Virus record (IMG/VR): IMGVR_UViG_3300032116_000094
Span: 64,001 to 88,554 of that record
Reading direction: 5' to 3' (one strand)
DNA from: a virus
Lineage: Duplodnaviria > Heunggongvirae > Uroviricota > Caudoviricetes
Length of the DNA: 24,554 bases
Under the pieces are notes generated by a model. It did no database searches. It saw only the letters and a list, made by a program, of their open reading frames with translations, and was not told where the DNA came from. Below, piece by piece: positions 7,867 to 24,554 of this stretch (position 1 is the first letter of the stretch; each line of letters starts with the position of its first letter). A program made the translations under genes and the position numbers.

Positions 7867-7875
7867 TTTTCTTAA

Positions 7876-8082: not shown

Positions 8083-8096
8083 AGTTTTAGTTTTTT

Positions 8097-8465: not shown

Positions 8466-8896
8466 AATTGATCTTTTAAATTTGTTGTTCTCAAAAACGT
8501 TGCTGATTGAGATATTGATTTAGTTTTTATTGCCGATAGCTCATCTTCTTTAGCTTGCAATTCAGATCTCAGGGTTTGTAATGTATTTGACAACTTAGAC
8601 ATTTTATCTCGTAAGTCTAACGTTTCTTTTTCGACAAGCTCACTACAATCTTTATCTTGAATCACCGACACCTCTTTAATAATTTCCCTGTCTACATATT
8701 TAATAACCTCCTTTTCTATTATCTCGATTTGTTTTTCAGGCTCTGATCCACCTAATAATCCATATTTTTTAATATCAAAACCTTGTTTTAAACATTGAAG
8801 TAAAAACTTTTCAATATCAGATATTGAATTTAAGTGACAATATTCCTGAATTGTAGAATACAATTCATTATGAATTGATAAGTTTTTCATCTCCAT
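8462..8896 (-). CDS. Hypothetical coiled-coil protein
   Basis: ATG at 8896 or 8890; IEKEVIKYVDREIIKEV repeat-like segment followed by a coiled coil; ATGA coupling downstream. Confidence 0.75.
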   Translation of the reverse strand: MEMKNLSIHNELYSTIQEYCHLNSISDIEKFLLQCLKQGFDIKKYGLLGGSEPEKQIEIIEKEVIKYVDREIIKEVSVIQDKDCSELVEKETLDLRDKMSKLSNTLQTLRSELQAKEDELSAIKTKSISQSATFLRTTNLKDQL

Positions 8897-9647
8897 TAAT
8901 TATATCATCAATACTAGTAATTTTAAAAGAAAGATAAGACCTGGGGTTTTTAATGTCAAAAAACGTATATTCATCAATTTCTAGATCATAAAGGCCATAG
9001 CCATGATAACTAACTGACTCACCATAATCTTGCTGAATAAAAGAGCCAACCATATATGCTTTCTTATTATTAGGAATATTAAAAACTTGTCTTTTGTGTA
9101 TATCGCCACATAATACTACGTCGCAGCCTGAAAATTTATTAGTATCATAACCTTCAGTAAAAACGTGGCCAACATCTGTTTTTAACCCATGAACCGCACC
9201 GTGAAATATACCTATGTTTTTTTTATCTGAAAAAACAAAGTCAGGTGGTATATTATGGTCCATTAATGAATATACACACCAATTAACATTGGAATCTTCA
9301 TAGATGCCTCTATTTTTGTAGTAAACAATATTTTTATTATTTAAAGATTCAACAACAGGAGTTATAGCGTCTAGTCGACCCATATTTGCCTCCAAAAAGT
9401 CATGATTACCTGGTATGATAATTGTTTTACATATTTTAGAACATTCCACCAATACCCAAGCAATCATGTCTATCAATTCTGGTGACATTTGGTTTTTAGA
9501 ATGAACCAAGTCACCAGAAAAAACAATTCTATCAGGATTATGTCCACGCCACTCAGAAAAGGCTTTATTTAATAATAAACGATATAATTCGTGATCTTTA
9601 TATATTTTAAGGTGTAAGTCCGAGAAGTGAATTATTTTCTTTATCAT
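8868..9647 (-). CDS. sbcD: SbcD/Mre11/gp47-like calcineurin-type metallophosphoesterase nuclease
   Basis: Motifs HFSDLH, FSGDLVH, PGNHD, FHG, CGDIH and GSFIQQDYGE; start moved from TTG 9665 to ATG 9647; close to the SbcC-like gene. Confidence 0.9.
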   Translation of the reverse strand: MIKKIIHFSDLHLKIYKDHELYRLLLNKAFSEWRGHNPDRIVFSGDLVHSKNQMSPELIDMIAWVLVECSKICKTIIIPGNHDFLEANMGRLDAITPVVESLNNKNIVYYKNRGIYEDSNVNWCVYSLMDHNIPPDFVFSDKKNIGIFHGAVHGLKTDVGHVFTEGYDTNKFSGCDVVLCGDIHKRQVFNIPNNKKAYMVGSFIQQDYGESVSYHGYGLYDLEIDEYTFFDIKNPRSYLSFKITSIDDIINGDEKLINS

Positions 9648-9858
9648 TAGATTCTTGTGTGTCAAAAATATTAAATTCTTTATTTATGTGGTTGCATTGA
9701 TTACAACAATAAACGCTAATAGGTGCAATAGCATCTTGACTCTCCCCAAGCATAATCCTAGACACTTTTTTCAGTATAAAAGCTTCTTTGAAGAGTTTCG
9801 ATCCGCATTTTTCGCAAGATATATTAGGTTGTGATCTTAAATCAATTTTTGAATCCAT
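9607..9858 (-). CDS. Small zinc-ribbon protein
   Basis: CEKC and CNQC Cys pairs in 83 aa. Confidence 0.75.
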   Translation of the reverse strand: MDSKIDLRSQPNISCEKCGSKLFKEAFILKKVSRIMLGESQDAIAPISVYCCNQCNHINKEFNIFDTQESNDKENNSLLGLTP

Positions 9859-9887
9859 AGTAATTTTAATTTATTTTTAGTTTATTG

Positions 9888-10745
9888 TCAAATTTTGTGT
9901 AATTTAAAATCGTATTGTAAAACACGATTTGTTATGTTTTGAGGAACCCTATACTCAGAATACATTGAGTCCTCATTCAAATGAACCACAATGCAACCTA
10001 ATAATTTTGTATTTTCAAATTCAGTTCCTTCAAGCATTTTTAGAAGCAATTTCCCATATAATGGCAACTGTAAATAATAGTGCCCTAAAGCAGTATCGTC
10101 TATATCGTCAAAAGGTGGTTTTAACTTTTTAGTATATTTGTTAGGAACAAAATTCTTAGATTGATTCGTTTTCCAGTCTGTGATAGCAATTCCAATTTCA
10201 CCTCTAGATTTAGATTCAAATAACCATACTTTATCTGGTTGACCAACGTACCCCAATTCAGGATGACCTATTACCATCTCAGTATCCAATAATATACCAC
10301 CACGTTCTTTCATAAGTTTAAGATATTTGTTACCGGCGGATATCATTTTATCACTAGCTAATAACTGGTATCTATCACATTCAAAAACAGGTTCTCTAAG
10401 AGTTTTTCTTAAATTAAAAAGATCTACAGAAGTTTGCTCTAAAAAATAATGTACACGATTACCAAGATTGACAGCTTTATCTCCTGATTCTTTCCATTTA
10501 AGTAATAGTTCATTCTTTTTCTGTGTATTACCTTTTGATATTTGTTCAGAAATTTGTTCGGCATCAAACTCGTCATAAAATTTTTTAATAACTTTAGTAA
10601 CGGAAGGATAATTATCACGTATATTACCATTAGAATCTATCATATGGTAGATGTGTGTATCTTCAAAAAACTTTAGTGAAAGTTCCTCTCTTTTTGTTTC
10701 AAAAACTTTTCTAAGCTCATTAGCCGTGTCATTTATATTCATCAT
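9888..10745 (-). CDS. PD-(D/E)XK superfamily (RecB/Cas4-like) exonuclease
   Basis: YPSVTKVI, LDTE, GQPD, ITDWKT and YYLQLPLY motifs in canonical order. Confidence 0.85.
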   Translation of the reverse strand: MMNINDTANELRKVFETKREELSLKFFEDTHIYHMIDSNGNIRDNYPSVTKVIKKFYDEFDAEQISEQISKGNTQKKNELLLKWKESGDKAVNLGNRVHYFLEQTSVDLFNLRKTLREPVFECDRYQLLASDKMISAGNKYLKLMKERGGILLDTEMVIGHPELGYVGQPDKVWLFESKSRGEIGIAITDWKTNQSKNFVPNKYTKKLKPPFDDIDDTALGHYYLQLPLYGKLLLKMLEGTEFENTKLLGCIVVHLNEDSMYSEYRVPQNITNRVLQYDFKLHKI

Positions 10746-11660
10746 TTATTTTATTTCATAATAATATTCGTTTATTTTTCCCCTCAAATCGCAGACATCT
10801 TTATCTGCCGGTAGTTTTAAAACCCTAATCTTACCGTATAATACCCCCCCATTTAGCTCATGATATAGTTTTAGTGCGTTATCAAAAGCATCTCCATCGA
10901 GGCATATAGTAATATTACCCTTTGCCTTGTTATATAATGCTTCAAAAAGAATATTTGGTAAATGTTTACCTAACAAGGGAATGCTATTGTTTAGAAAAAA
11001 AGAGTCGAACACCCCCTCAACTAAAAAAATATCATCGGACCAATTAATAAGGTGTTCATTAAAAATAATCAACTCCTTTTCAGCCTCAGGATTTTTATAT
11101 TTTGCTCGTGATTTTGTGTTCCAAGATCTTCCAATATAATAATTTAATTCATTGTTACTATCGTATGACGGTACTATAATTCTACCTTTGTAATCTCCTT
11201 TGGCCGCAAAACCTATTTTATATTTGTTTATTATTTCTTCTGTAATACCTCTAGACTTCAAATAATTTATAGCCTCAAGATACGGAGGATACCGTTTATT
11301 TGATTCACTTAATAACACGAAATCTTCAGGTAGTTTTATTTTCTTCCTAAAATGCGTAACTTGTTCCGAATCTTTCGGTCTTATTAAATTGTAAAGTTTT
11401 TTTAGCCTTTTATCACCATATAATTCAAATAGCTTACCCAGAGGACCATGCATTTTGCTATAATCCCCACAAGACCAGCAGTGAAATAAATGTTTAGAAT
11501 ACGATATTTCTAGGTTGCCTTTCCCATCCCCAGATTCTAATCCTTTTAATTCTGAACAATTTGGACAATCATATGATATCTGGGATTTGTTGGGATAGTG
11601 AGCTTTATGCTGACCCAACAGATCATCCAACAAGGTTATTATTACATCATGCTCTTCCAT
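10746..11660 (-). CDS. dnaG: DNA primase (zinc finger plus Toprim)
   Basis: CPNC...FHCWSC zinc finger; YLKSRGI, RIIVP, KYKNP; Toprim LVEGVFD, ICLDGDA, DKDVCD. Start moved from TTG 11699 to ATG 11660. Confidence 0.9.
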   Translation of the reverse strand: MEEHDVIITLLDDLLGQHKAHYPNKSQISYDCPNCSELKGLESGDGKGNLEISYSKHLFHCWSCGDYSKMHGPLGKLFELYGDKRLKKLYNLIRPKDSEQVTHFRKKIKLPEDFVLLSESNKRYPPYLEAINYLKSRGITEEIINKYKIGFAAKGDYKGRIIVPSYDSNNELNYYIGRSWNTKSRAKYKNPEAEKELIIFNEHLINWSDDIFLVEGVFDSFFLNNSIPLLGKHLPNILFEALYNKAKGNITICLDGDAFDNALKLYHELNGGVLYGKIRVLKLPADKDVCDLRGKINEYYYEIK

Positions 11661-11664
11661 AGAA

Positions 11665-11675
11665 CAAAGGTAATA
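11665..11675 (-). promoter_or_regulatory. Bacteroidota-type -7 promoter element TAnnTTTG (TATTACCTTTG), probably a near-leaderless transcript
   Basis: Minus strand reads TATTACCTTTGttctATG, with only 4 nt before the primase ATG; identical to 5504-5514. Confidence 0.6.
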
Positions 11676-11708
11676 AATTAATTTCAATAAAAAAAACAAG
11701 AAATAAAT

Positions 11709-12311
11709 TTAACTCCAAATGCCTTCCTTTTTTAGGAACCCTAACGCACAACAATACGCATCAGTACTATCGAAATTTTCTTTTTTCAACGTATTATTTT
11801 TAGTAAATAACCATTGAATTTGCGGTTCACGTTTAGAGACTAATTCCCATATTACCATTTTTTTATCAACATCCTTTGGATACCCACCAAACAAGACATT
11901 TTTACCCTTATCATTTTTCTGTAAAAGTTCAGGAAAGGCATTTTTCCTGGATTCATATGTTGTGATAAAATCAGGAACAATACCTAATACTTCATAAACC
12001 TCTCTAAATATTAGAGTGTTAAACCTAAGTAGCGTACCTATTGTATATGCATTATTAGAGTTCAATAACGGCTCTTCAATAACAACATGTGTGATATTTA
12101 AACTAGAATACGCTTCTAACTTTGATCTAAACATATTAGATTTTAATATTAGTTCTTCCAGTTTATTTCCAACTTCAGGTTTTGGCCTGGGGGATACATG
12201 CGTTAATTCTAATAATTCTTTAGTCGCAATATCAAATAATGCGATCCCAATAGTTTTAGTTGAAACGTCCAATCCTAGAATTTTTGGGTTATTTACAATA
12301 GTTTCACTCAT
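11709..12311 (-). CDS. ruvC: RuvC-like (RNase H fold) Holliday junction resolvase
   Basis: ILGLDVSTKTIG, VVIEEP and DSTDAYC carry the D/E/D/D acidic residues; located in the replication block. Confidence 0.8.
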   Translation of the reverse strand: MSETIVNNPKILGLDVSTKTIGIALFDIATKELLELTHVSPRPKPEVGNKLEELILKSNMFRSKLEAYSSLNITHVVIEEPLLNSNNAYTIGTLLRFNTLIFREVYEVLGIVPDFITTYESRKNAFPELLQKNDKGKNVLFGGYPKDVDKKMVIWELVSKREPQIQWLFTKNNTLKKENFDSTDAYCCALGFLKKEGIWS

Positions 12312-12362
12312 ATAATAAATTATTGATACAATAATAGTTAAATATGTTGTAATTGTGAATTA

Positions 12363-14570
12363 TTAAAAATCCAATCTTACTGCAAATTGCTGAGTACCTT
12401 GCCTTTGTATAGGTGACTGCAACTTTGTTATTACAACCAAATCTTTATCGACATCAAACAAACCAACTTCAGTTATAAAACTATTTGTTCCTGGAACCCA
12501 TGTTGGGTTAGTTGTGTTTGTAAATTGTGTTGAAACTAAATTACATAAAAACCTCATTTCATAAATAGTTGCCTCAATATCTGTCTCGATATTTCCATAA
12601 AAAAAATACTCCTCACCAAAATTCAAAAGATCTTCTTGCCCTGATGGTTCTGGTAAAGGTAAATAATCTGCTAAATCATATGTATCGGCATTATTATACA
12701 TATCGTAGCTAATAATGAATGTATTTGATGTCATAGCAGAAGGCGAAATTGCTCCATTGCAAGTATCACCGCTCACCCTATAAGTAAAATCAATTTTTTT
12801 CCAAGCTCCAGGCGAAGGTTGTGTTGTAGAACCAGAAACCAACTGAGCTAATACCATAAATTCATTCGCATTAAATCCACTAAAACAAGTGCAACCAGAA
12901 TTCATAAAAGGAAATTCCTCACCAAATTTAATAGCAACGTTTTGCCTGTCTTGATTACACTCATCACTAGGACCTTGCACTTTAGAATAATAATTACAAT
13001 GCAATGAGTCAGTAAATCCAAATGTTGAATTAAATCTATACGTAATATACATGTACTCTTGGTTATTACCTATAACACCAAAGTCATCAACGTCAGCATC
13101 ACACAAATTGGGGGCAACCAAAGACAAAGATGGTGCAGGTAATGTCCAGTTTCTATTTGATTTATACGATAAGGCTGCTACGATTTCGTCATCGTCAAAC
13201 ACAATAGTTTTTATATCAGGAAATACTTTTCCTACTCTATTTGGTGTACCTAAGTTATTTACATGTGTATCCCACAAATGATAGTATCTTAGCCCTGGAT
13301 TATTCATATCATTATCCACAGCAGATTTCATATATTTGACTTGGAATAATCCCTGAACCCCAACATCCGGATCAACATAAAAAGTCTCCCCCATTTGACC
13401 GGTAGATGACTTATGCCACATTAGCCAAGGTATTGAAACTTTAAAGTTTCTAGCAAAACCAGTCGTCTCTAAACTTTGCGGATCGAATGGTCTTAACGCA
13501 AATTTTTCACCATAAAAACTATCAATAGCATTGTTTGTATAATGAACTATAGCAATAGCCTTTTGCTCATTAGGATTTTGATAAACAGGTTTTTGATATG
13601 AATTAAAATAATAAGTATCTGTTGTTTCAGCAGTTAATGCAGGTGAAACCCAAAATGTTTGACCGCTTAGTTCTTGATAGCCAAAATATTCTTTACTACC
13701 AAGATATGTTCGTGAATTATATTTTGTGAAATCTTCATTCAAAGTAGAAACCACACCTGCCGGACTTACTGACCAAGGAATATTCATATTCCAAATTTTA
13801 ACATCGGTGTTACCTAAATCACAAATAGATTCAAAGTTAATAACATCAGGTGGCCAGTATCCTTCAGGCGTATTGTAATCATATAACTCAGTCATACCTG
13901 AAGGGTATATTAATACTCTAGCCGTTCCACAACAACCCGACTCAGAATAATTAGGTATATTCCTATCCAAAGTTAGTGTATTACCTGATACTGATTGTAT
14001 TTTATAAGTTAAAATTGGAAAGTTTGCAGTTAACCCACTATTACATGAACCAACCCCATCATAATAAATCGTAGCAAAATGACCGGAAAATGTTACTCCT
14101 GTTGTTGTAGAACAAAAATCGTCTGTTAATGTTATAGTATTACCACTATTTGAACAAAGGTCCAAAATGTAATTAGAACTAATAGTGTATGCTGAAGAAG
14201 TTTTTGCCGTCCATGAATTAGCCGAACCACTAAAAAAGCCTCTTGGTGCTGCTGTGTTGAATACCGAATAAATTTGTGAGTCCTCAAACGCTAAACCATA
14301 TGTATTGCCAGATGAACCAGATACATAATATGGATATTTTATATGCATTTTATTTGTCTCTGGATTCTGACTAGAATTTTGAGCATTATATGCGGCCTCT
14401 ATTATATTATTGTTTGTTTGATTATAACCTGGTATCTGATTATATAGCACTTCACTATCCCCAATTTGGAAATAACGAATATCTAGTTTACCTTTAGATA
14501 GCTTTAATCTACCGGTATCTGTAAACCTTGTATTTAATAGACCTGATGTATTTTTTATTATATATGCCAT
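12363..14570 (-). CDS. Putative virion tail/baseplate structural protein
   Basis: The C-terminus ITEVGLFDVDKDLVVITKLQSPI resembles the tail-collar fibre (DUF3751-like) ExGLFDxxxxL motif; N-terminal TDTGRxKLSxG...FQIGDSEV; S/T/N/G-rich; TATTTAT upstream. Confidence 0.65.
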   Translation of the reverse strand: MAYIIKNTSGLLNTRFTDTGRLKLSKGKLDIRYFQIGDSEVLYNQIPGYNQTNNNIIEAAYNAQNSSQNPETNKMHIKYPYYVSGSSGNTYGLAFEDSQIYSVFNTAAPRGFFSGSANSWTAKTSSAYTISSNYILDLCSNSGNTITLTDDFCSTTTGVTFSGHFATIYYDGVGSCNSGLTANFPILTYKIQSVSGNTLTLDRNIPNYSESGCCGTARVLIYPSGMTELYDYNTPEGYWPPDVINFESICDLGNTDVKIWNMNIPWSVSPAGVVSTLNEDFTKYNSRTYLGSKEYFGYQELSGQTFWVSPALTAETTDTYYFNSYQKPVYQNPNEQKAIAIVHYTNNAIDSFYGEKFALRPFDPQSLETTGFARNFKVSIPWLMWHKSSTGQMGETFYVDPDVGVQGLFQVKYMKSAVDNDMNNPGLRYYHLWDTHVNNLGTPNRVGKVFPDIKTIVFDDDEIVAALSYKSNRNWTLPAPSLSLVAPNLCDADVDDFGVIGNNQEYMYITYRFNSTFGFTDSLHCNYYSKVQGPSDECNQDRQNVAIKFGEEFPFMNSGCTCFSGFNANEFMVLAQLVSGSTTQPSPGAWKKIDFTYRVSGDTCNGAISPSAMTSNTFIISYDMYNNADTYDLADYLPLPEPSGQEDLLNFGEEYFFYGNIETDIEATIYEMRFLCNLVSTQFTNTTNPTWVPGTNSFITEVGLFDVDKDLVVITKLQSPIQRQGTQQFAVRLDF

Positions 14571-14574
14571 AACG

Positions 14575-14581
14575 ATAAATA
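14575..14581 (-). promoter_or_regulatory. Candidate late promoter core TATTTAT
   Basis: Minus strand reads gaTATTTATcgttATG in the 30-bp gap. Confidence 0.45.
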
Positions 14582-14600
14582 TCCTATTTAATGTAAATTA

Positions 14601-15977
14601 TTAGCCACTAGGTGGGTTATTAGGGTCTTGCTGCGGTATTTGTTGAGGTATTTGCGTGGTACTCTCAATTATTGTTGTTGGTTGAATTATAACACAATCA
14701 TTATCCACCGTAATATTTGACAAATAAGCATTTATCCCAACCGTACCTCTTGTATAACATAATGGATCGAATGTGAAGCCAGGATCAATATCTATTGTAT
14801 ATTCAATGTAACCAACAATATTTGATGTGTTATTACCTGTTATGGCTGTAGCAGAATATATATCATATGCAGCATATACATCATGTATCGGATTACATTG
14901 TGACGTAGATATATTGATGAATGGCCCACTATCTATTATTGACATTGTTTTTTGAATATTATTCACACTAATACTATGCCCTGTTGTTATAAAACTAACT
15001 GTTCCAGGCTCAGAATAGGTTTTAGTGTATGTTACAACATAATCAAACTCAATATTAACACCTACAGGCAATAATGATGTATCAATAGTAAAGTCGATTT
15101 TGTATTTTGTTAAGTCATTTATAGTTGTACCAACTCTATCCGGGCCAGCAGTAACAACCATCGGTAATTCATAAGTTTTTGGTTGAGATGGTGATAGTGT
15201 AACGTCACAACTAGTTGTATTACCTGATGAATCTTTAGCATAGACTGTATATGCCCCAGAAAATAACCCATTAAATATCCCAACATTAATAAAATTAACA
15301 TTATCTAAAGAATATTGCCAAGGAGGATTACCACCAGTTGCCACCGAAGTTATTGACCCATCATTTTCGTTTACACATGATGGACTATTAAAATTACACT
15401 TTATACTATATGTCTTATCTGCACTTTGACATTGACCCTCTGTTGATTTACAACTAAAAAATTGAGCGTTATTACCAAAGACAAACCATCCTGTCAATGG
15501 GGTATCTTTCGGGTCTGAGCTTCGTATAATTAAGCTAGGATAATCAGGTATTGGGTCTAGCTCCCAATATTGATTTATAAAATTCCATCTGGCATAATAG
15601 TTTATCAGATTTATTGTCGTAAAATACTCAGGTTTACCATTATAAGAGTTGCCGTTATAACAAAATGTATATCTTTTAAGCGTATTTGTTCTTGAATTTG
15701 TAATTGATAAACAAAAACAAGGATATGTTTTAATTGGATCTGAAATGTTTATTGTATTATACAAGCCACATAAATTGTTATATAATAATATTTTTTTACT
15801 TGTATCTGGGACTACAACTAAAACCCCTGTTATTAACTCCGAAAAAGTTAATCCTGTAGCAAATTCTGTTGTTAAATATTTAGTAGCCAAACTACTAGAT
15901 GATATATTATCATAATACACCGAAAAAGTTCCGTCAGGAGTTCCTGCTGTTATTGTTATATTAAATATCCTATTCAT
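14601..15977 (-). CDS. Putative virion protein with one SprB-like repeat
   Basis: True start is the ATG at 15977 (MNRIFNI), 1 nt after the upstream stop; the track's extension to 16097 is an alternative-frame reading of the PT repeat. SprB-like unit SCVNENDGSITSVATGGNPPWQYSLD...FNGLFSGAYTVYAKDSSG at about 15196-15407. Confidence 0.75.
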   Translation of the reverse strand: MNRIFNITITAGTPDGTFSVYYDNISSSSLATKYLTTEFATGLTFSELITGVLVVVPDTSKKILLYNNLCGLYNTINISDPIKTYPCFCLSITNSRTNTLKRYTFCYNGNSYNGKPEYFTTINLINYYARWNFINQYWELDPIPDYPSLIIRSSDPKDTPLTGWFVFGNNAQFFSCKSTEGQCQSADKTYSIKCNFNSPSCVNENDGSITSVATGGNPPWQYSLDNVNFINVGIFNGLFSGAYTVYAKDSSGNTTSCDVTLSPSQPKTYELPMVVTAGPDRVGTTINDLTKYKIDFTIDTSLLPVGVNIEFDYVVTYTKTYSEPGTVSFITTGHSISVNNIQKTMSIIDSGPFINISTSQCNPIHDVYAAYDIYSATAITGNNTSNIVGYIEYTIDIDPGFTFDPLCYTRGTVGINAYLSNITVDNDCVIIQPTTIIESTTQIPQQIPQQDPNNPPSG

Positions 15978-15978
15978 A

Positions 15979-16893
15979 TTATGGTGTCGGAGTTGGCGTA
16001 GGTGTTGGTGTTGATGTCGGAGTAGGACTAACTGTAGGTGTTGGTGTTGATGTTGGTGTCGGGCTAGGAGATATTGTTGGTATTGAACAAGTGCCAATAT
16101 TTAAAACAGACCCCAAAGAATTTGTTTGTATCCAATAAATACCGTTTGAATAATACCCTTCAACTACAGGCATTGTTAATTCATAATCATAATAAATGAT
16201 ATCCCCACTTTGCATTTCAAATATTTGTGAAACTGTTGACCAGTATTCTTTTGTTTCACCAGAACATGATGACAAGATAGTTGTTCCGCTACCTAATAAC
16301 AAATAGTTAAGTTCACTAACAGAGCCAGAAAAAATACAATCTAATGGTTCTATTAATTCGCAGCTAACGGTTGTTATAAAGTCATAATATTTATCAGTAA
16401 TTGTGGCATTATATGTACCTGCACTCAAGTTATATATTGTTGTACCAGTAGCTGTGGTATTATTAGGTAATGACCATACAACATAATATGGTGCTGTACC
16501 CCCAGTTATTGCTAAAGATAATATTCCACTATTAGGACTATTAACGTCAGGATTTATTGCAATACACTGAGCACCTAATGGAAATAATGTTATTGGTTCA
16601 CATTCGTTATATGAAACCCCTGGTATCGGAGGTGGAGGTAATGGCGTTGGCTCTGGCCCTGGACATGGCAAGCATCCTGAATATGAACATGTCATACCAG
16701 ATCCAGCATCAACCAAAGGTATATCATCATTTAGAATGGTAAAATATACCTTAATATCTGGCTCTTCAATAACTTTGTAACAAAAATTAATTGGCTTGCT
16801 GATTAATAAATTACCAACAGTGTATTTTGTTCCTGATTTTATTTTATATATTTGATTATCACAGCATCCTGTAACATAGCTACTTAAATTCAT
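15979..16893 (-). CDS. Putative virion protein: Cys-rich module, SprB-like repeat, C-terminal Pro-Thr tail
   Basis: Start moved to ATG 16893 (MNLSS); GCC...CLPC module, PGPEPTPLPPPP linker, SprB-like SGILSLAITGGTAPYYVVWS...NLSAGTYNATITD (about 16384-16566), and a PTPT tail. Confidence 0.75.
   Translation of the reverse strand: MNLSSYVTGCCDNQIYKIKSGTKYTVGNLLISKPINFCYKVIEEPDIKVYFTILNDDIPLVDAGSGMTCSYSGCLPCPGPEPTPLPPPPIPGVSYNECEPITLFPLGAQCIAINPDVNSPNSGILSLAITGGTAPYYVVWSLPNNTTATGTTIYNLSAGTYNATITDKYYDFITTVSCELIEPLDCIFSGSVSELNYLLLGSGTTILSSCSGETKEYWSTVSQIFEMQSGDIIYYDYELTMPVVEGYYSNGIYWIQTNSLGSVLNIGTCSIPTISPSPTPTSTPTPTVSPTPTSTPTPTPTPTP
15982..16080 (-). repeat. Pro-Thr dipeptide (6-bp period) low-complexity tail
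   Basis: ggtgt(t/c/a) units encoding PTISPSPTPTSTPTPTVSPTPTSTPTPTPTPTP up to the stop. Confidence 0.85.
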
Positions 16894-16898
16894 ATAAT

Positions 16899-17117
16899 TT
16901 ATATTACAATTAAAGATTTTATCACACAATTATTCCCATCTAATACCCGGATACCAACTTCACTTAAATTATTGTATGGTTCTGGAACTAAAAAAGAATA
17001 TGGTATGTCAGCATCATTTATTGTTGTAACGTATGCACACATGTTATATGTATTGTCACAAATATATACTGTGTATGGTTGTGTTCCGATTAAGTCTGTA
17101 ATAGTTATCTCTTTCAT
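16899..17117 (-). CDS. Small beta-rich hypothetical protein, 72 aa
   Basis: Tiles between virion-type genes; GTQPYTVY...VLDGNNC resembles a degenerate SprB/Ig-like unit. Confidence 0.75.
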   Translation of the reverse strand: MKEITITDLIGTQPYTVYICDNTYNMCAYVTTINDADIPYSFLVPEPYNNLSEVGIRVLDGNNCVIKSLIVI

Positions 17118-17123
17118 ATTATT

Positions 17124-18914
17124 TTAACTTACACATGTTCCCCAAACTATTGTCACAACAGTAGATCCTATTAATATTGTTGACCCACTAGACGGTATGG
17201 ATGTTCCATTTATTTTTACATTATATAATGTGTATCTAATCGGAGTGCCTCCTCCTCCTGAATTCCAATAACCTGTTTTAGTGTCTGGAGTTAAAGATAC
17301 TATCCCAGAATTACCAGTGTTAAATGTTACTAGACTGCTCAGATTATTATATTGAGCACCAGCAACACCTGATGTACAACCTATATCATCATAACCATCA
17401 CCAAAAACTGTTGAAACTGTTAAGTTACCTGTTATAGGTGTATTTAGTTCCGCAACAAATATTGGGAACGATGAACTAGATATATTGTCCATTGTTAAAT
17501 ATAATGTTGGGATAACGTCTGTCGGTGTTGGTGTTGGTGTTGAAGTCGGTGTATTCGTAGGAGTGCTTGTTGGTGCCGGAGCAGGTGTCGAAGTTGGGCC
17601 TGTTGCCGTTGGAGATAATGTAGGTGTTGGTGATATCGTGCTTGTTGGTGTTATTGTCGGTGTAGGTGTTGGCGTTGGAGTTATTGAACAGTTATCACAA
17701 CCTGGACCTAAAACCCATATTATGTCATTGAGGATAGCATTTGACGAATTACTTGATAATGACTCGTATGTTACACATTTTGAAACGCCATTTATTACAC
17801 AATTAAATGTAACTCCAGTCTCAATTGATAATCCTGAAAATACCAATGAGTCAACAACATAGTATGTGTCTCCTGATATACAATCAACTAGTTTTTTTGT
17901 TTTAGTATCTGTAAATGTATCATCAACTAAAGTATATGTTACATCACCACTAAAGCAAACGCTATAACCCGTTATTGGTGTTGCCGTAGGTGTCGCACTA
18001 GGTGTTGGTGTAGGTAATGTTGTAGCACTTAAAGAAATACTAGATAACGAACAATCAGATGTCGGCGTTGGTGTCGGTGTTGGTGTTGGAGTAGATGTCG
18101 GTGTAGGGCTTATTGTTGCTGTTGGTGTTGGTGTTATTATCTCACAATTAAAATACGCATTAAAATCAAAATCGTCGCATATTGCAGGTGTTGGCGTTGG
18201 TGTTACAACACAAACTCCTTCTGTTAATTCAGATAATGAAATGTCTGGGCAATTTTCGTAACAAGGAACTTTACCAAATAAAAAACAATCTCCACCCAAA
18301 CTATCAGATAAACACCATTTATACCCTGTATTATATAAATACCCTATTTGATCTGTACCCCCAGTATAATACGCATATCCATTATAGTTACCAACTTTAT
18401 TATAGGTCCCATCATTATCAAAATAATTATTAGTATCTAAGCAATATTGGTTAATCGGACATTCAGGCCCTATATACGTAGGTGTCGGTGTTGGTGATGG
18501 TGTAGGTGTAGGCGTTTGTGTTGGTGTAGGTGTAGGGCATGTTATGCAGCCTTCACAACTAACTTGCTGGACAAATATACCTGTTGTCCCATCATATACT
18601 GTTCCTCCACCTAAATTATCTATATAGGTGCAACCAGTATATCCTGAAACAGTAACGTGATAAAAGTTAGAAACTAATTGTGCCGGAATACCACTAACTG
18701 TAAATGTTATGCCACTATCACAACAATCCGTAAAATTGTATTGATAACTAGCACAGGCTGGACTACAACTCATGTCAGTTAATGTTATTCCAGAATATGA
18801 GTAATCGTCATTTAAACAAATTGGTGTACCAATAGTAGATCCGCTTTGGAAATAACCGCAACAATCTGTATATTGCCAGGAGCTAGAATTAGTTACACCA
18901 GATAGACAAGCCAT
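17124..18914 (-). CDS. Putative virion fibre/decoration protein with Cys-rich modules joined by mucin-like Pro-Thr linkers
   Basis: 596 aa; DCC/DC...CxxC modules; several PT tracts; TATTTATA upstream. Confidence 0.75.
   Translation of the reverse strand: MACLSGVTNSSSWQYTDCCGYFQSGSTIGTPICLNDDYSYSGITLTDMSCSPACASYQYNFTDCCDSGITFTVSGIPAQLVSNFYHVTVSGYTGCTYIDNLGGGTVYDGTTGIFVQQVSCEGCITCPTPTPTQTPTPTPSPTPTPTYIGPECPINQYCLDTNNYFDNDGTYNKVGNYNGYAYYTGGTDQIGYLYNTGYKWCLSDSLGGDCFLFGKVPCYENCPDISLSELTEGVCVVTPTPTPAICDDFDFNAYFNCEIITPTPTATISPTPTSTPTPTPTPTPTSDCSLSSISLSATTLPTPTPSATPTATPITGYSVCFSGDVTYTLVDDTFTDTKTKKLVDCISGDTYYVVDSLVFSGLSIETGVTFNCVINGVSKCVTYESLSSNSSNAILNDIIWVLGPGCDNCSITPTPTPTPTITPTSTISPTPTLSPTATGPTSTPAPAPTSTPTNTPTSTPTPTPTDVIPTLYLTMDNISSSSFPIFVAELNTPITGNLTVSTVFGDGYDDIGCTSGVAGAQYNNLSSLVTFNTGNSGIVSLTPDTKTGYWNSGGGGTPIRYTLYNVKINGTSIPSSGSTILIGSTVVTIVWGTCVS
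17521..18536 (-). repeat. Multiple Pro-Thr tracts within the 596-aa gene (about 17521-17685, 17975-18135, 18185-18205, 18477-18536)
   Basis: Runs of ggtgtt/ggtgtc/ggtgta; tract boundaries are approximate. Confidence 0.8.
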
Positions 18915-18930
18915 GAATAATGTTTTATAC

Positions 18931-18938
18931 TATAAATA
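18931..18938 (-). promoter_or_regulatory. Candidate late promoter TATTTATA
   Basis: Lies 16 nt upstream of the ATG at 18914, in the divergent intergenic region. Confidence 0.5.
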
Positions 18939-18992
18939 ACTAGAATTTAATTTTTTTGATAAAATCAATGAAAAATAATAAGCTAATTTATT

Positions 18993-19000
18993 TAATTTTG
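18993..19000 (+). promoter_or_regulatory. Possible Bacteroidota -7 element TAATTTTG for the glycosyltransferase operon
   Basis: Matches TAnnTTTG 30 nt upstream of ATG 19031; the region is very AT-rich, so a chance match is possible. Confidence 0.3.
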
Positions 19001-19030
19001 AATTAAAAAACATTATTTTTTTAACAAAAA

Positions 19031-19972
19031 ATGAAAAAAGTATTCCTAGATTTATCCGAAGCAAAAGGCTTAGGTGATACGCTATCAGCAACCCCTGTTA
19101 TTAGGAAATTAAAAGAATCATATGGTTCCAAAATATATGTCATAACGAATTATCCTGAGTTATTCCATAATAACAGAAATGTTGAAAAAGCTTATTATGT
19201 AAATGCAATTAATATAGAAAATGTAAAATCAACACAGATATATCATTCATCATTCAATAATGTTGGTAAGAAAAATGAGTTTGGTGTTGAATTTAAAAGT
19301 AATGTATGTGATATAAGACAATATCATGCTATGACGCTTGGCTTTCAATTATCTGAAGATGATTTGTATACAGAATATGAACCCGATGAATATATACCAA
19401 TTGATGGACTACCAGAAAAATTCGTTTTAATCCATCCCGCAGAAAATTGGCCCTCAAGAACCTGGGATAAAGACAAATGGGCCGATCTTGTTAATTTATT
19501 ATGCGGAAATAATATAAATGTTGTTATTACAGGTAAAAACACCGAGGAATATGGATTTTTTCACATTACAAAAAAAATATTTAGCATAAAACAAGACTTG
19601 GTTTTAGATTTATCAAACAAAAGTAATATATCGCAAACCTGGCACTTAATTGATAAATCTTCTTGTTTTGTAACAATGGATTCAGGACTGCTGCATTTAG
19701 CAGGAACAACAGATGCCGAAATAATTCAACTCGGAAGCTCCATAAATAACGAATTTAGAGCCCCATATAGATATATGTCACAAGATTACAAATACCATTA
19801 TATCTCAGGTCCTTGTGGAATATTTTGTGCTTCAGACATGAAATATGGTGTTAGAGAATGGGGTACAATACATGGTGTTCCCCCATTAATTGGCTGCTTA
19901 GAAAATAAACCTGAATTTGAATGCCACCCATCGGTAATTGATGTTTACGAAACAATTATGAAAATCATATGA
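19031..19972 (+). CDS. Glycosyltransferase family 9 (heptosyltransferase-like, GT-B) with a C-terminal four-Cys cluster
   Basis: GLGDTLSATPVIRKLK, VLIHP...SRTWDKDKW and FVTMDSGLLHLA are GT9 motifs; C-x3-C-x22-C-x8-C at 19814-19924. Confidence 0.85.
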   Translation: MKKVFLDLSEAKGLGDTLSATPVIRKLKESYGSKIYVITNYPELFHNNRNVEKAYYVNAINIENVKSTQIYHSSFNNVGKKNEFGVEFKSNVCDIRQYHAMTLGFQLSEDDLYTEYEPDEYIPIDGLPEKFVLIHPAENWPSRTWDKDKWADLVNLLCGNNINVVITGKNTEEYGFFHITKKIFSIKQDLVLDLSNKSNISQTWHLIDKSSCFVTMDSGLLHLAGTTDAEIIQLGSSINNEFRAPYRYMSQDYKYHYISGPCGIFCASDMKYGVREWGTIHGVPPLIGCLENKPEFECHPSVIDVYETIMKII

Positions 19973-22900
19973 ATAATAAACTTAAATTTGATAAAGCGTA
20001 TATTTTGTATGCAACCGAAAATTATTTTCCAGTAATAGAATGTACTATAACTAGTATTAGGAAGTTCTCTAAATTACCGATAATAGTTTATTCTATAAAT
20101 AAAAAATTTGAAACATCTAATAATGACGTATATTGTGAAGTAATGTATAATATACATTTAAGGCATAAAAATAATGATGATTTATACATTAAAGGATTGG
20201 ATGAATCTAATTTTTATATTAAAAGAGAAAACCCTCACATATATTCAATATTAATCCAAAAACCATTTATAACAATACATGCCTTAGAAAATTATGCTAA
20301 AACAGTATTCTTTATTGATGCCGACTCAGTTATATTCAACAATATTGACATTTTTTTTGATTTATATCCAGAAAATGAAAATATTCCTTATTTTACCAAA
20401 GGCATTTATGATTTTTTAGCATATAACGAAATTGGTCATGAAGACGGTTTAGAAAATACCGTTGAACACAAATTATGCGAATTATTGAATATTGATCAAT
20501 CATTTAGGCTAAATACAAGTTATAGGCAATCTGGTTATTATATATCAGGCCAGAAGAGTATACCATTTTTAAATGAATGGTATATTACTTGCGGAATGGA
20601 TATAATATTTAGGAACCATGCAATTTATGCCCCTTATAACGAAGAAACCGTATTAAACTGCTTATTATGGAAATATAAAATAGATAAGGGTTTGCCTTTA
20701 ATATATGTTAACGGATCGTTAGATAGAATTGATATTATCAATGATAACAAAAATTATTTAGGTATTGAAAACGAAATACAAGAATGGTTTAAACTACCTC
20801 CCCAGAAAAATTCTGTGTATTTTATACATGGTGAAAAAAGACCAAATATTATTATGGATATGATAAATAAAATTGATGAAATAAAAAACCGAGATAGCGG
20901 AAAAAAAACAAATATATTGTATTTAGCCCCTCATTTATCAACAGGTGGTATGCCAGCTTTTCTACTAAAAAGAATTGAGGCCATAAAAAAATACTATAAT
21001 GACGAATTTAATATTTTTGTTGTTGAATATACAAATTATGGCGATGCATTTTCAGTGCAAAAAGATATGATAAAAACTATGATCGATTCTGATAAGTTTT
21101 ATTCCTTAGGATATTTAGGTGAACCTATTGATAATAAATACAAGTTATTGGATATTATTAAATATAATAATATAGACGTAGTACATATTGATGAACCAAT
21201 TGAAGGCTTTGACTCATTTAATCCTGTGCCAAGAGATTTAATTAACCTACTATATTCTGAGGACAGATCTTGGAATATTGTCGAAACATGCCATAATGTT
21301 GTATTTAATCCTAAACAATCAAAAGAATTTCATCCTGACGCATATGCTTTATGCTCAAAATATCATAAAAATGTAACTTTTGCTGATGAAAAAGAAATTT
21401 TAGAGTTAATTGAATATCCGATTGAAAATTTCAAAAAAACAAAAGCTGAAAAATTAAAAGCGCAATTAAGTTTAAATTTAGATCCTGAAGTAAGACACGT
21501 ATTAAATGTCGGTATTTGGACACCAGGTAAAAATCAAAAAGAATTCGTAGAAATTGCAAAATTGTTTGAAAACAATAACAATTTACATTTTCATGCTATT
21601 GGTTCCTTAGCACCTAATTTTGAAGACTATTGGGGCCCAATTGTTGAAAATTTACCTAAGAACATAACTGTATGGGGTGAAAGAAATGACGTTCATGCAT
21701 TTATGGCAGCTTCTGATGTTTTAATATTTAACTCAACATTTGAGTGTAACCCAATAACTCTAAAAGAAGCTATATCTTTTGGATTGAAAATATTAGCAAG
21801 AGATCTAAATGTTTATTTAGACACATACTCACAATATATTATACCAATAGATGATAATATTTTAGACACAAAAAATAAATTAGAAAAAATTGTAAATTCA
21901 AAATTATTTTCATATACAGCAACTAATGAACAGAATTCTTTTGCGGAAAAACATGTTAATTTATATCTAAATTTAAAAAACAAAGAATCCAAATATAAAT
22001 TAGATATAGCTCAATCATTTGTTGGTCAACCTTATTTTGAAATAAAAGGAAAGGATAATAACACATATCACGTAGAATTTATTGATGAAAATAACACACT
22101 TGTTTATTCTGAAAATATCACCACAAATACTTGGATAAGACTTAACCGAAAATATTATACAAAATGGAAAACTAATGTATCTATTGATGATAAAATTATA
22201 TATTCAAAAACATTATCATTAAAAAATGAAAGAGTTTATATCGCATTCGATAGTAACTCGTTAGGCGATACAATTGCTTGGATGCCATATTGCTTAGAAT
22301 TTAAGAAAAAACACAATTGTTATTTGATTGTATCAACATTTTGGAATAAATTATTTGTTGATGTTTACCCTGAAATTGAGTTCGTAACTCCTGGTGATAT
22401 TGTTTATGACTTATACGCGATGTATAACATAGGATATTATTATGATAATAATAGTGCCCCAGAAAACCCTCAAATAATACCCTTGCAAAAGGTGGCAACA
22501 AACATTTTAGGATTAAATTACCATGAAATTTCTCCAAGGATTAAATTTAATCCGGGGAAAAGACCTATTGAATCTAGATACGTTACCATAGCAACAGATT
22601 CTACAGCCCAACTAAAATATTGGAATTATCCTAGAGGTTGGGAAATACTTTGTGAGTATCTTCAAAATTGCGGATATAAAGTTATCTCTGTCTCAAAAGA
22701 AGCGTCTAAAATTAATGGGGTTATAAACTTATCCGATACATCAATAGAAAATACTATGAATGTGATTCATCATAGTGAGTTTTTAATCGGTTTATCTAGC
22801 GGTCTATCATGGCTTGCTTGGGCATTAGATAAACATGTTGTTATGATCGCTAATTTCACGGATGAGGACCAAGAATTTAAATCAAATTGTACTAGAATTA

Positions 22901-23079
22901 TTAATAAATCAGTATGTAACAGTTGTTGGAATAACCCATTATTTAAATTCGACAAATCAGATTGGAACTGGTGTCCAGAACATAAAAATACTCCTAGGCA
23001 ATTTGAATGCCATAAATCTATAACGCCAGATATGGTGTTTCAAAGAATAAAAAAAGACATATTTAAGTATGAAAATTGA
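19969..23079 (+). CDS. Three-domain glycosyltransferase: GT-A (DxD), GT4 (GT-B), and TibC/Aah-like autotransporter strand-loop-strand O-heptosyltransferase domain
   Basis: N-terminal FFIDADS...EETVLN...FIHG (about 19969-20890); middle APHLSTGG, NVGIWTPGKNQ, SDVLIFNSTFECNPITLKEAISFG (about 20905-21980); C-terminal SLGDTIAWMPY, STAQLKYWN, IGLSSGLSWLAWA and CNSCW-x14-CPEHKNTPRQFEC (about 21990-23079). Confidence 0.88.
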   Translation: MNNKLKFDKAYILYATENYFPVIECTITSIRKFSKLPIIVYSINKKFETSNNDVYCEVMYNIHLRHKNNDDLYIKGLDESNFYIKRENPHIYSILIQKPFITIHALENYAKTVFFIDADSVIFNNIDIFFDLYPENENIPYFTKGIYDFLAYNEIGHEDGLENTVEHKLCELLNIDQSFRLNTSYRQSGYYISGQKSIPFLNEWYITCGMDIIFRNHAIYAPYNEETVLNCLLWKYKIDKGLPLIYVNGSLDRIDIINDNKNYLGIENEIQEWFKLPPQKNSVYFIHGEKRPNIIMDMINKIDEIKNRDSGKKTNILYLAPHLSTGGMPAFLLKRIEAIKKYYNDEFNIFVVEYTNYGDAFSVQKDMIKTMIDSDKFYSLGYLGEPIDNKYKLLDIIKYNNIDVVHIDEPIEGFDSFNPVPRDLINLLYSEDRSWNIVETCHNVVFNPKQSKEFHPDAYALCSKYHKNVTFADEKEILELIEYPIENFKKTKAEKLKAQLSLNLDPEVRHVLNVGIWTPGKNQKEFVEIAKLFENNNNLHFHAIGSLAPNFEDYWGPIVENLPKNITVWGERNDVHAFMAASDVLIFNSTFECNPITLKEAISFGLKILARDLNVYLDTYSQYIIPIDDNILDTKNKLEKIVNSKLFSYTATNEQNSFAEKHVNLYLNLKNKESKYKLDIAQSFVGQPYFEIKGKDNNTYHVEFIDENNTLVYSENITTNTWIRLNRKYYTKWKTNVSIDDKIIYSKTLSLKNERVYIAFDSNSLGDTIAWMPYCLEFKKKHNCYLIVSTFWNKLFVDVYPEIEFVTPGDIVYDLYAMYNIGYYYDNNSAPENPQIIPLQKVATNILGLNYHEISPRIKFNPGKRPIESRYVTIATDSTAQLKYWNYPRGWEILCEYLQNCGYKVISVSKEASKINGVINLSDTSIENTMNVIHHSEFLIGLSSGLSWLAWALDKHVVMIANFTDEDQEFKSNCTRIINKSVCNSCWNNPLFKFDKSDWNWCPEHKNTPRQFECHKSITPDMVFQRIKKDIFKYEN

Positions 23080-23434
23080 GGTATCAATTGGAGAAATTGT
23101 AGATAAGTTATCTATTTTACAAATAAAAAAAGAAAATATATCCGATGTTAATAAATTGTATAACGTAAATAATGAATTTAGTTATTTACATGATATTGTA
23201 TTCAATGAGCTTAAAATCAGTGATGACGATTATTATAATCTTTTAATTATTAATAAAAGCTTGTGGGATATTGAAGATCATATACGAAAAAAAGAAATCG
23301 ATAAATCATTCGATGATGAGTTTATCGATTTAGCTAGAAAAGTTTATATTACAAACGACAAAAGATCCGTTATAAAAAAAGAAATAAATATAAAATATAA
23401 CTCATTATTTGTTGAAGAAAAATCTTACAAATAA
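23069..23434 (+). CDS. DUF6165-like protein
   Basis: VSIGEIVDKLSILQIK...INKSLWDIED..R...FIDLARKVYITNDKRSVIKKEIN...VEEKSY matches the recalled family pattern, which is commonly found beside glycosyltransferases. Confidence 0.75.
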   Translation: MKIEVSIGEIVDKLSILQIKKENISDVNKLYNVNNEFSYLHDIVFNELKISDDDYYNLLIINKSLWDIEDHIRKKEIDKSFDDEFIDLARKVYITNDKRSVIKKEINIKYNSLFVEEKSYK

Positions 23435-23471
23435 AAAAAAATGTGGCAGAATTAACTGCCACATTTTTTTT
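23434..23471. terminator. Bidirectional intrinsic terminator between convergent genes
   Basis: A8-tgtggcag-aattaa-ctgccaca-T8, a perfect inverted repeat with a poly-T run on both strands. Confidence 0.85.
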
Positions 23472-24552
23472 ATGATAATATAGTGAAAACTAATTGTGGA
23501 TGGAAATATAATGTATATTCACTTAAAGCTACGCCAATTATCTGTACTACGTCATCTTTGGCTGATGGCGGTGTTGTAGTTATATTTCCTGCTGTAGTAC
23601 TTAAATACCAAATAGTATTAGGACCACCATATGCTCCAACACCTGAAGACACTTTTGTTACAAACCCGTGCATCAAAAAGTTTCCTGCTGCACCACTACT
23701 TAAGCTTGTTTCAAGACATAAAGCTATTGCAGGAGCTGTAGAGCCCGTATCTGCGTCAGCTTTTTTAAATTGACCAAGTGTTGCGTCAATATATACAACA
23801 TCACCAAACGCTAATGATTCACCAGCAGTAAATCTGGTTATCATACCCCAACCCGCAGAGCCTGTTGTTCCTGTTGAAATTGGGTATATTGAGGTTATAC
23901 CTGTAAGTGCTGGTGATGTTCCCGAAGTGCCAGATGTTCCACTCGAACCTGATGATCCGCTTGAGCCAGAAGACCCTGATGAACCACTTGAACCTGAAGA
24001 GCCAGAAGATCCTGATGTACCAGAAGATCCCGACCTACCGGATGTACCTGATGTTCCACTCGAACCTGATGATCCGCTTGAGCCAGAAGACCCTGATGAA
24101 CCACTTGAACCTGAAGAGCCAGAAGATCCTGATGTACCAGAAGATCCTGACCTACCGGATGTGCCTGATGTACCACTCGAACCTGATGATCCGCTTGAGC
24201 CAGAAGACCCTGATGAACCACTTGAACCTGAAGAGCCAGAAGATCCTGATGTACCAGAAGATCCTGACCTACCGGATGTGCCAGAAGTACCAGAAGAGCC
24301 TGACGAACCGCTCGAACCAGATGAGCCAGAAGAGCCTGATGACCCGCTTGAACCACTCGAACCAGATGAGCCAGATGTACCAGAAGAGCCTGATGACCCG
24401 CTTGAACCACTCGAACCAGATGAGCCAGATGTGCCAGAAGAGCCTGATGACCCGCTTGAACCGCTCGAACCAGATGAGCCAGATGTACCAGAAGAGCCAG
24501 ATGATCCTGACGAACCGCTCGAACCAGATGAGCCAGATGTACCAGAAGAGCC
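23470..24552 (-). CDS. Collagen-like Gly-Ser/Thr-Ser fibre protein with a C-terminal DUF2190/capsid-cement-like domain (5' end beyond the window)
   Basis: The frame of track ORF 23470..23844 stays open to the window end: (GSS/GTS)n-PALTGITSIYPISTGTTGSAGWG-MITRFTAGESLAFGDVVY...KADA...YLSTTAGNITTTPPS...VVQIIGVA. Confidence 0.85.
   Translation of the reverse strand, partial: GSSGTSGSSGSSGSSGSSGSSGTSGSSGSSGSSGSSGSSGTSGSSGSSGSSGSSGSSGTSGSSGSSGSSGSSGSSGSSGSSGSSGSSGTSGTSGRSGSSGTSGSSGSSGSSGSSGSSGSSGSSGSSGTSGTSGRSGSSGTSGSSGSSGSSGSSGSSGSSGSSGSSGTSGTSGRSGSSGTSGSSGSSGSSGSSGSSGSSGSSGSSGTSGTSGTSPALTGITSIYPISTGTTGSAGWGMITRFTAGESLAFGDVVYIDATLGQFKKADADTGSTAPAIALCLETSLSSGAAGNFLMHGFVTKVSSGVGAYGGPNTIWYLSTTAGNITTTPPSAKDDVVQIIGVALSEYTLYFHPQLVFTILS
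23914..24552 (-). repeat. 71 consecutive 9-bp Gly-X-Y units with higher-order 117-bp x3 (23932-24282) and 54-bp x3 (24328-24489) duplications
   Basis: Walked codon by codon: Gly at every third residue, X/Y positions all Ser or Thr except three Arg, one per 117-bp unit. Confidence 0.92.
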
Positions 24553-24554
24553 TG

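Follow-up and report, generated by a model that had tools for sequence, protein, structure and literature searches.

The last 24.5 kb of an 88.5-kb viral contig in IMG/VR (record IMGVR_UViG_3300032116_000094, positions 64,001 to 88,554; this whole stretch of 24,554 nucleotides is referred to here as the window) carry a plus-strand operon of glycosyltransferase (GT) genes that meets a phage fiber gene tail to tail. We consider it fairly probable that positions 19031-24552 of the window form a phage fiber-glycosylation cassette, in which a relative of the bacterial autotransporter heptosyltransferases (BAHTs) TibC and Aah would decorate a collagen-like fiber. The features that carry this reading are family membership, conserved residues at the catalytic and metal sites, the layout of the operon, and the adjacency of enzyme and tract in both phages and bacteria, all of them established by sequence comparison.

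The TibC-like enzyme and the adjacent fiber

The middle gene of the operon encodes a 1036-residue fusion protein, and its C-terminal part (residues 698-1029; 22060-23055, plus strand) is predicted to be a TibC/Aah-like protein O-glycosyltransferase domain. It matches TIGR04414, the NCBIfam equivalog for BAHTs, over model positions 27-373 of 374 (307.2 bits against a cut-off of 200; E 1.4e-91), and the Protein Data Bank (PDB) entries 4RAP and 4RB4 with an E-value of 1.8e-55, the alignment to 4RAP (TibC) covering TibC residues 40-379 at ~35% identity. The roles of individual residues in TibC were defined in its structure paper, in which Asp110 is the catalytic base, Thr226 and Lys230 are beta-phosphate ligands, and Trp305 is a heptose ligand (PMC4358343). 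In addition, Arg286 contacts adenine N1, conferring ADP specificity, and its Ala mutant is inactive, while a beta-hairpin thumb with Phe265-Val266 at its tip joins dimers into a dodecameric ring; the classical BAHTs modify Ser in Gly-rich repeat loops (PMC4358343). We aligned these positions across 54 viral clusters (see below), 16 cellular sequences, and four classical (AIDA-type) sequences. The equivalents of Asp110, Thr226, Lys230, and Trp305 are all present in the window protein and in 54/54 viral clusters; the cellular and classical sequences likewise all keep Asp110, Lys230, and Trp305, and three of them have Ser in place of Thr226. The putative Cys4 (1Fe-0S) iron finger is likewise recognizable by equivalents of Cys339, Cys342, Cys358, and Cys370 with the same spacing; no viral or cellular sequence deviates at these four positions, and one classical sequence has Arg in place of Cys370. 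Position 300 of the window enzyme is Ser, matching Aah. The TibC-like call of the initial annotation, which had been made from the sequence without database searches, is therefore confirmed by a score far above the cut-off and by retention of the key residues, with the thumb and Arg286 as exceptions. By its sequence, the window enzyme is a member of the superfamily that belongs to a distinct, thumb-less branch.

The gene on the right of the operon runs on the minus strand, converges with it, and is cut off by the end of the contig. What is seen of its collagen-like tract (23914-24552, minus strand) spans 213 residues in 71 consecutive Gly-X-Y triplets, namely 52 GSS, 16 GTS, and 3 GRS, with no Pro at all. 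It contains exactly 139 Ser/Thr, in agreement with the earlier count of at least that number. The tract belongs to the collagen-like family PF01391 (107.8 bits against a cut-off of 27.2; E 2.2e-31) and matches PHROG tail-fiber families with E-values down to 7.7e-30. The usual stabilizers of a triple helix, which are Pro or hydroxyproline or charged residues at X and Y, are largely missing from it, as X and Y are Ser, Thr, and three Arg. The tract is followed by a globular C-terminal domain of ~147 residues plus stop (23470-23913, minus strand) with weak signals of gpD/SHP-like cement proteins. An Atlas feature comparison places this domain with a Phage_cement_2 cluster (0.95); PF09956 matches three of four homologs below its cut-off of 24 (13.5-17.9 bits); and the top Foldseek matches are capsid decoration proteins and the base of the phi29 head fiber, with a best E-value of 1.8e-3 from a model with a predicted local distance difference test (pLDDT) score of only 60. 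The domain is therefore possibly a capsid cement (decoration) domain of the gpD/SHP type, and because these three weak hints are concordant, the fiber may be a head fiber rather than a tail fiber. A reciprocal search with the domain found only one viral locus.

Pairing of enzyme and tract in phages

A scan of IMG/VR recovered 114 viral stretches with a TibC-like domain, from which 80 loci were taken. Adding three INPHARED records and the window gives 54 clusters at 90% identity. We counted an open reading frame (ORF) as qualifying if its Gly-X-Y runs were 30 residues or longer and contained 40% or more Ser/Thr. Among the clusters with at least 8 kb of downstream sequence, 22/30 have such an ORF there, and the enzyme gene converges with 30/31 of these downstream ORFs, as in the window. 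An upstream Gly-X-Y ORF is present in only 6/39 clusters, and 20/23 clusters having both flanks carry one on either side. The background is low: the 88.5-kb contig has a single qualifying ORF, the fiber gene beside the operon, and the complete 322-kb genome of a relative (G001) has three, one of which lies 5 kb downstream of its TibC-like gene. When all neighboring ORFs of the 54 clusters were themselves clustered, GT domains were found in 52/54, DUF6165 in 26/54, and any other family in at most 17/54. The linked viral proteins are fibers, some reaching more than 3000 residues, and several end in a Peptidase_S74 chaperone domain (5.8e-15). As some linked fibers end in this domain and the window fiber ends in a possible cement-like domain, the shared factor appears to be the tract and not the type of fiber.

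The islands of relatives hold additional genes that fit a toolkit for decorating both glycan and collagen, including a sulfotransferase (11/54), a P-loop protein resembling adenosine 5'-phosphosulfate kinase (12/54), a methyltransferase (10/54), and a 2-oxoglutarate-Fe(II) oxygenase of the prolyl-hydroxylase type (7/54). Examples of such genes beside a TibC-like gene are found at L067:11410-12294, L048:2754-3347, L066:11054-11683, and L052:4187-4759. This suggests that the fibers of some phages carry sulfated, methylated, or hydroxylated decorations.

With the operon as query, blastn returned no match from 50,697 phage records, and tblastn matched only four, one of them from a cultured phage. 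In this phage, Microcystis phage Mel-JY01 (PP395634; L082), the TibC-like domain ends a 1226-residue protein annotated as 'methyltransferase FkbM', and a Ser/Thr-rich Gly-X-Y frame, not annotated as such, lies 1.7 kb upstream of the fusion gene. The frame, at positions 2-3049 of the plus strand, has 1016 codons, of which 606 encode Ser/Thr-rich Gly-X-Y sequence, and is open at the start of the record, which instead has two minus-strand 'hypothetical proteins' called over it. A 639-residue 'cytidylyltransferase like protein' (PF01467, 3.8e-4) is also encoded ~3 kb downstream of the fusion gene.

Pairing in bacteria and phylogeny

In 4/4 plasmid loci, a classical BAHT gene lies directly upstream of the gene for its AIDA-repeat autotransporter substrate, so in the TibC/Aah family the neighbor is the substrate. 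Neither the window nor the viral TibC loci encode an autotransporter; their conserved neighbor is the Gly-X-Y gene. A scan of species-representative genomes gave 20 cellular TibC-like loci. In Methylobacter luteus, another Methylobacter, and metagenome-assembled genomes (MAGs) of gamma- and betaproteobacteria, a stand-alone TibC homolog lies beside small (GTS)n or (GSS)n proteins that carry signal peptides or lipoboxes, and the surrounding genes are housekeeping genes such as mfd, queA, glycolate oxidase, miaB, and two-component systems. Examples of these small lipoprotein or secreted tract genes are L114:8458-8838 and 11201-11827, both on the minus strand, and L106:8920-9783 on the plus strand; they may represent an undescribed class of bacterial glycoproteins. 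In one 3.8-Mb genome (G009), 24/24 windows matching (G-S/T-S/T)8 fall within the two genes that flank the enzyme, and a control with the reversed pattern gave 0. We set aside one further (G-S/T-S/T)8 tract, on the 22-kb contig G007:C151 (L127/L128) in the bin of a Saprospirales MAG. No TibC gene is present on this contig, which appears to be phage DNA caught in the bin, as it encodes a PG_binding-like lysin and a fiber gene that begins at 21548 and reaches the contig end within GSS repeats.

Maximum-likelihood analysis groups the AIDA-type enzymes in a single clade (100/100) and places the window enzyme in a mainly viral clade of 44 rows (99/98). The chromosomal tract-associated enzymes make up two more clades, each supported at 100/100, with an unresolved backbone. 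As tract-associated enzymes fall in several supported clades, the association occurs in more than one branch of the TibC/Aah family. The co-occurrence of TibC-like genes with Ser/Thr-repeat genes, which the initial annotation had named as a check of its proposal, is thus seen among the viral clusters, in the cultured cyanophage Mel-JY01, and on chromosomes of bacteria. A broader claim, to which we would give somewhat less than even odds, is that the thumb-less branch of TibC/Aah enzymes has (Gly-Ser/Thr-Ser/Thr)n as its cognate acceptor and produces a new class of 'glyco-collagen' or mucin-like filaments, in the form of giant head or tail fibers in phages and small lipoproteins in free-living bacteria.

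Proposed mechanism and sugar donor

We infer sugar transfer, its acceptor and donor, the order of the GTs, and a benefit to the phage, and the proposed course is as follows. In the host cytoplasm during infection, the TibC-like domain would place the first sugar on Ser/Thr hydroxyls of the (Gly-Ser/Thr-Ser)n tract of the new fiber; that it works on the newly made protein in the cytoplasm is proposed from the example of Aah and TibC. Lengthening or diversification of the glycan would then fall to the GT-A and GT4 domains of the fusion and to the GT9-like enzyme. The product would be a densely O-glycosylated, collagen- or mucin-like fiber of the particle, perhaps anchored on the capsid through the cement-like C-terminal domain. 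A role of the glycan in shielding, stability, or adhesion is speculation. It is intriguing to consider that in Pro-free tracts the sugars may supply stiffness or triple-helix stability, as hydroxyproline does in animal collagen. In one worm cuticle collagen, O-glycosylated Thr at the Y position stabilizes a helix that lacks hydroxyproline, and this precedent would give a rationale for the Pro-free tract.

The donor would be a nucleotide sugar made by the host. No GmhA or cytidylyltransferase-like gene was found in the contig or in four large relatives, including the complete 322-kb genome, and because the phage lineage has no heptose-synthesis genes, the donor must come from the host. Heptose-1-phosphate adenylyltransferase (TIGR02199) scored above its cut-off in 97/151 sampled Bacteroidota genomes and in 5/5 cellular genomes with a TibC-like gene. 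ADP-heptose is a plausible donor and our default guess; it is less sure because Arg286 is replaced.

Points against the proposal and alternative explanations

Several points weigh against a fiber-glycosylation cassette. The thumb hairpin is mostly gone through a deletion of 8-9 residues in the viral and chromosomal clades and is intact in 4/4 AIDA-type enzymes. The position of Arg286 is Thr in the window protein, Arg being kept in 4/54 viral, 5/16 cellular, and 4/4 AIDA-type sequences. These losses mean that activity or donor may differ from those of proven BAHTs, and both a dodecamer and ADP specificity are doubtful for the window enzyme. A downstream fiber is absent from 8/30 clusters with enough flanking sequence, and the adjacency in phages could stem partly from common descent or from a shared hypervariable island for host recognition. 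The donor survey covers 151 sampled Bacteroidota genomes, and for the host of this phage donor supply is presumptive. Glycosylation of any such fiber is a prediction from gene sequences. Moreover, to our knowledge the acceptors of known BAHTs are Ser on beta-helix repeats and not Gly-X-Y tracts.

An alternative that we consider unlikely, albeit the strongest of the competing explanations, is that the GTs remodel the host envelope, acting on lipopolysaccharide (LPS) core, O-antigen, or capsule and thereby blocking superinfection or masking receptors, with the fiber nearby because both reside in a shared variable region. A further point against fiber glycosylation is that the GT9, GT4, and GT8-like folds are canonical families of LPS-core synthesis; LPS heptosyltransferase models match the protein P0002, and the position of the island differs between the window phage and G001. 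GT clusters in the tail-fiber regions of aquatic myophages have also been read as modifiers of the host envelope (PMC7029224). However, the TibC-like domain passes the equivalog for protein O-heptosyltransferases, at 307 bits as opposed to 20 bits for heptosyltransferase I, and the pairing with (G-S/T-S/T)n genes holds in bacterial chromosomes that have no phage fiber region, where in G009 it is exclusive genome-wide.

A second alternative retains protein glycosylation and assigns it other main acceptors, namely the SGxT- and Pro-Thr-bearing proteins encoded to the left of the operon, other virion proteins, or surface proteins of the host. We regard this as improbable. To the left of the operon, four minus-strand genes (12363-18914) encode proteins of 735, ~458, 316, and 596 residues with Pro-Thr linkers, Cys-rich modules, and SGxT enrichment. 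The Pro-Thr tracts noticed in the initial annotation lie in 17124-18914 and 15979-16929. For the gene listed at 14601-16097, the listed TTG start overlaps, in another frame, the Pro-Thr tail of the gene upstream; its start is likely the ATG at 15977, one base past the stop of 15979-16929, which gives the ~458-residue product. The SGxT motif occurs in 9, 3, and 7 copies in three adjacent proteins, exactly those to the left of the operon, so that they hold 19/22 of the copies in the contig where 1.7 are expected, an enrichment of ~11-fold. None of 2000 composition shuffles reached the observed count of the 735-residue or the 596-residue protein, and only one other ORF of 511 is enriched at p<1e-4. 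The GSS/GTS tract itself also fits S-G-x-S/T, and classical BAHTs target Ser in Gly-rich loops (PMC4358343). Against other acceptors, no homologs of the four proteins were found in the other 83 TibC loci, and Pro-Thr tracts occur in 3/54 representative loci. The G001 homolog of the 735-residue protein (46% identical) is encoded next to RuvC, ~90 kb from the TibC-like gene of that phage, and has one SGxT. The left-hand genes are therefore outside the conserved cassette, and their enrichment in SGxT is genuine but peculiar to this phage, in which their products may be additional acceptors. Neither Pfam nor PHROGs gave a virion annotation for any of the four, the sole match being one SprB repeat in the ~458-residue protein (2.9e-7; 30.4 bits against a cut-off of 28), and an Atlas search with the 735-residue protein returned unnamed viral clusters only.

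These results divide two claims of the initial annotation. Its proposal that the TibC-like domain primes Ser/Thr on the fibers for extension by the other GTs has comparative support for the tract fiber and none for the left-hand Pro-Thr/SGxT proteins. Its placement of the operon between fiber genes in a minus-strand run of virion-type genes holds for the right-hand neighbor, which is a fiber. On the left, positions 1-12311 encode DNA metabolism and other functions and 12363-18914 have no virion annotation, so a place between fiber genes is not established.

The last alternative, in which the TibC-like domain is inactive or acts otherwise (on DNA or small molecules) and the adjacency reflects descent and island structure, draws on the thumb deletion, the loss of Arg286, and the non-independence of many co-occurrences owing to most viral loci belonging to one clade of 44 rows, but we find it very improbable, as the catalytic and metal-binding residues are invariant down to ~35% identity, which argues that activity is retained, and the pairing recurs across separate clades, GC contents, and cellular chromosomes.

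Other components of the operon and its setting

The operon consists of three plus-strand genes (19031-23434) with overlapping stop and start codons, and profile and fold matches substantiate the earlier description of four GT domains (GT9-like, GT-A, GT4, and TibC-like) plus DUF6165. Its first gene (19031-19972) encodes a 313-residue member of the GT9 family (PF01075, 9.8e-15; 55 bits against a gathering threshold of 22), which is also matched weakly by models of LPS heptosyltransferases, by TIGR04414 (4.3e-6), and by PDB 1PSW (E 4.5e-4). It shares 26% identity over 128 residues with the C-lobe of the TibC-like domain, and homologs are found in 35 TibC loci, own copies counted in. The GT9-like protein is a candidate glycan-extending enzyme.

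The N-terminal domain of the fusion protein (residues 1-320; 19969-20928) had no match in a Pfam search and was recognized by fold alone, from an AlphaFold2 model with a pLDDT of 78.8. Foldseek matched it to PDB structures of WbbM, the UGGT catalytic domain, alpha-1,3-galactosyltransferase, glycogenin, and LgtC (E ~2e-8, probability 1.00), and Asp117 and Asp119 of its DxD motif are invariant in 10 homologs. According to this model, the domain is a retaining GT-A transferase resembling GT8, GT6, and GT24. It is followed by a GT4 domain of the GT-B fold (Glycos_transf_1; approximately residues 485-660; 21421-21948) that matches PF00534 (1.2e-8), PF13692 (8e-8), and NCBIfam models of the GT4 type; homologs are found in 74 TibC loci, again counting own copies.

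The last gene (23069-23434) encodes a 121-residue DUF6165 protein (PF19662, 32.8 bits against a gathering threshold of 27; Atlas features 0.96). Homologs with 48-71% identity are present in 49 other TibC loci, in clusters L022 and L025 the TibC-like protein ends in a fused DUF6165 domain, and Atlas clusters include fusions of DUF6165 with GT9 or GNAT domains. From these sequence associations, DUF6165 is a conserved accessory or companion of the TibC-like gene. Complex prediction for the TibC-like domain and DUF6165 with two alignments scored 0.00, which speaks neither for nor against binding. A PHROGs search of the three operon proteins found none beyond one marginal match.

Between the operon and the convergent fiber gene lies a bidirectional intrinsic-terminator hairpin (23434-23471) with a 16-bp stem between A8 and T8 runs. 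The T4-type late-promoter motif TATAAATA is at chance level 5' of the operon (7 found, 7.3 expected), and sigma-70-like sites are near shuffle expectation. We also considered a foreign origin of the operon from its low GC content (0.26-0.27, compared with 0.35-0.36 in the neighboring 17-19 kb); this was dropped because the Pro/Thr codons of the neighboring genes can account for the gap.

The contig has an estimated completeness of ~30%. Positions 1-12311 of the window encode, on the minus strand, an amidase, a sigma-70-type factor, SbcC, SbcD, an exonuclease, and a RuvC-like resolvase, and are collinear with 90-108 kb of G001. This gene content marks a DNA-metabolism block and not a virion block. 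A 166-residue protein encoded between the sigma factor and SbcC genes (5006-5506) has a C-terminal match to DUF6576 (33.2 bits against a cut-off of 27.3). The genes for the 735-residue protein and the RuvC-like resolvase are a conserved pair (window 11709-14570; G001 109083-112085), whose orientation in G001 is reversed with respect to the collinear flanks.

Significance and comparison with known systems

A full-text literature search found no paper in which TibC/Aah-type enzymes are connected with phages or with collagen-like acceptors, and none on DUF6165 or Mel-JY01. If the proposal is correct, O-glycosylation by BAHTs, so far a matter of a few enterobacterial adhesins, would reach hundreds of environmental phages, a new kind of acceptor in the collagen-like tracts, and non-pathogenic bacteria. 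It would also explain the Pro-free Ser/Thr 'collagens' of many aquatic phages, which are not expected to fold unaided, and GT clusters in tail-fiber regions, routinely annotated as LPS or DNA modifiers, would need reassignment. A glycan coat on the fibers would matter for recognition of the host, for the stability of the particle, and for how readily it sticks to organic matter, and the pair of enzyme and tag would offer a simple tool for glyco-engineering.

Of the known systems, pelagimyophages, which are aquatic T4-like phages, also have GT genes, notably GT8, among the tail-fiber genes of a hypervariable region (PMC7029224). In contrast to our proposal, that study has the GTs modify host O-chains and mentions neither a TibC-like enzyme nor a collagen-like acceptor.

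The exosporium protein BclA of Bacillus anthracis and B. cereus is, along with virion glycosylation in mycobacteriophages, the closest parallel in function; it is a Gly-X-Y filament of bacterial type whose collagen-like region bears many O-linked oligosaccharides and which forms a surface nap (PMC7793302). Unlike what we propose for the window, its glycan is made of N-acetylglucosamine or N-acetylgalactosamine with rhamnose and anthrose, by unrelated enzymes that include no BAHT-type transferase. The repeats of BclA contain Pro (GPT).

Phage-encoded GTs that modify the structural proteins of their own phage in the host cytoplasm have a precedent in actinobacteriophages, where, according to the summary of Freeman et al. 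2023 in PMC12619734, mycobacteriophage capsid and tail-tube subunits carry glycans at their C-termini. Relative to that system as summarized there, the window enzyme is BAHT-like, its proposed acceptor is a long collagen-like tract, the host is probably a Gram-negative member of the Bacteroidota, and the modification is inferred from genes.

The parallels in enzyme family are the E. coli BAHT pairs TibC-TibA and Aah-AIDA-I (PDB 4RAP/4RB4; PMC4358343). The catalytic domain is homologous and has an N-terminal beta-barrel region, with the same catalytic Asp, ligands, and Cys4 finger, and in both settings the enzyme gene adjoins that of a highly repetitive, Ser-rich surface protein, on which the enzyme presumably acts in the cytoplasm, hyper-glycosylating it. 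Unlike TibC and Aah, the window enzyme is thumb-less, has Arg286 replaced, follows GT-A and GT4 domains in a fusion protein, and belongs to a clade separate from the AIDA-type enzymes; its neighbor is a Pro-free Gly-X-Y phage fiber, whereas theirs is a beta-helical autotransporter. The action of a BAHT on a repetitive neighbor and the self-glycosylation of phages are thus both known, and what is new here is the branch of the enzyme family, the proposed acceptor, and the setting.

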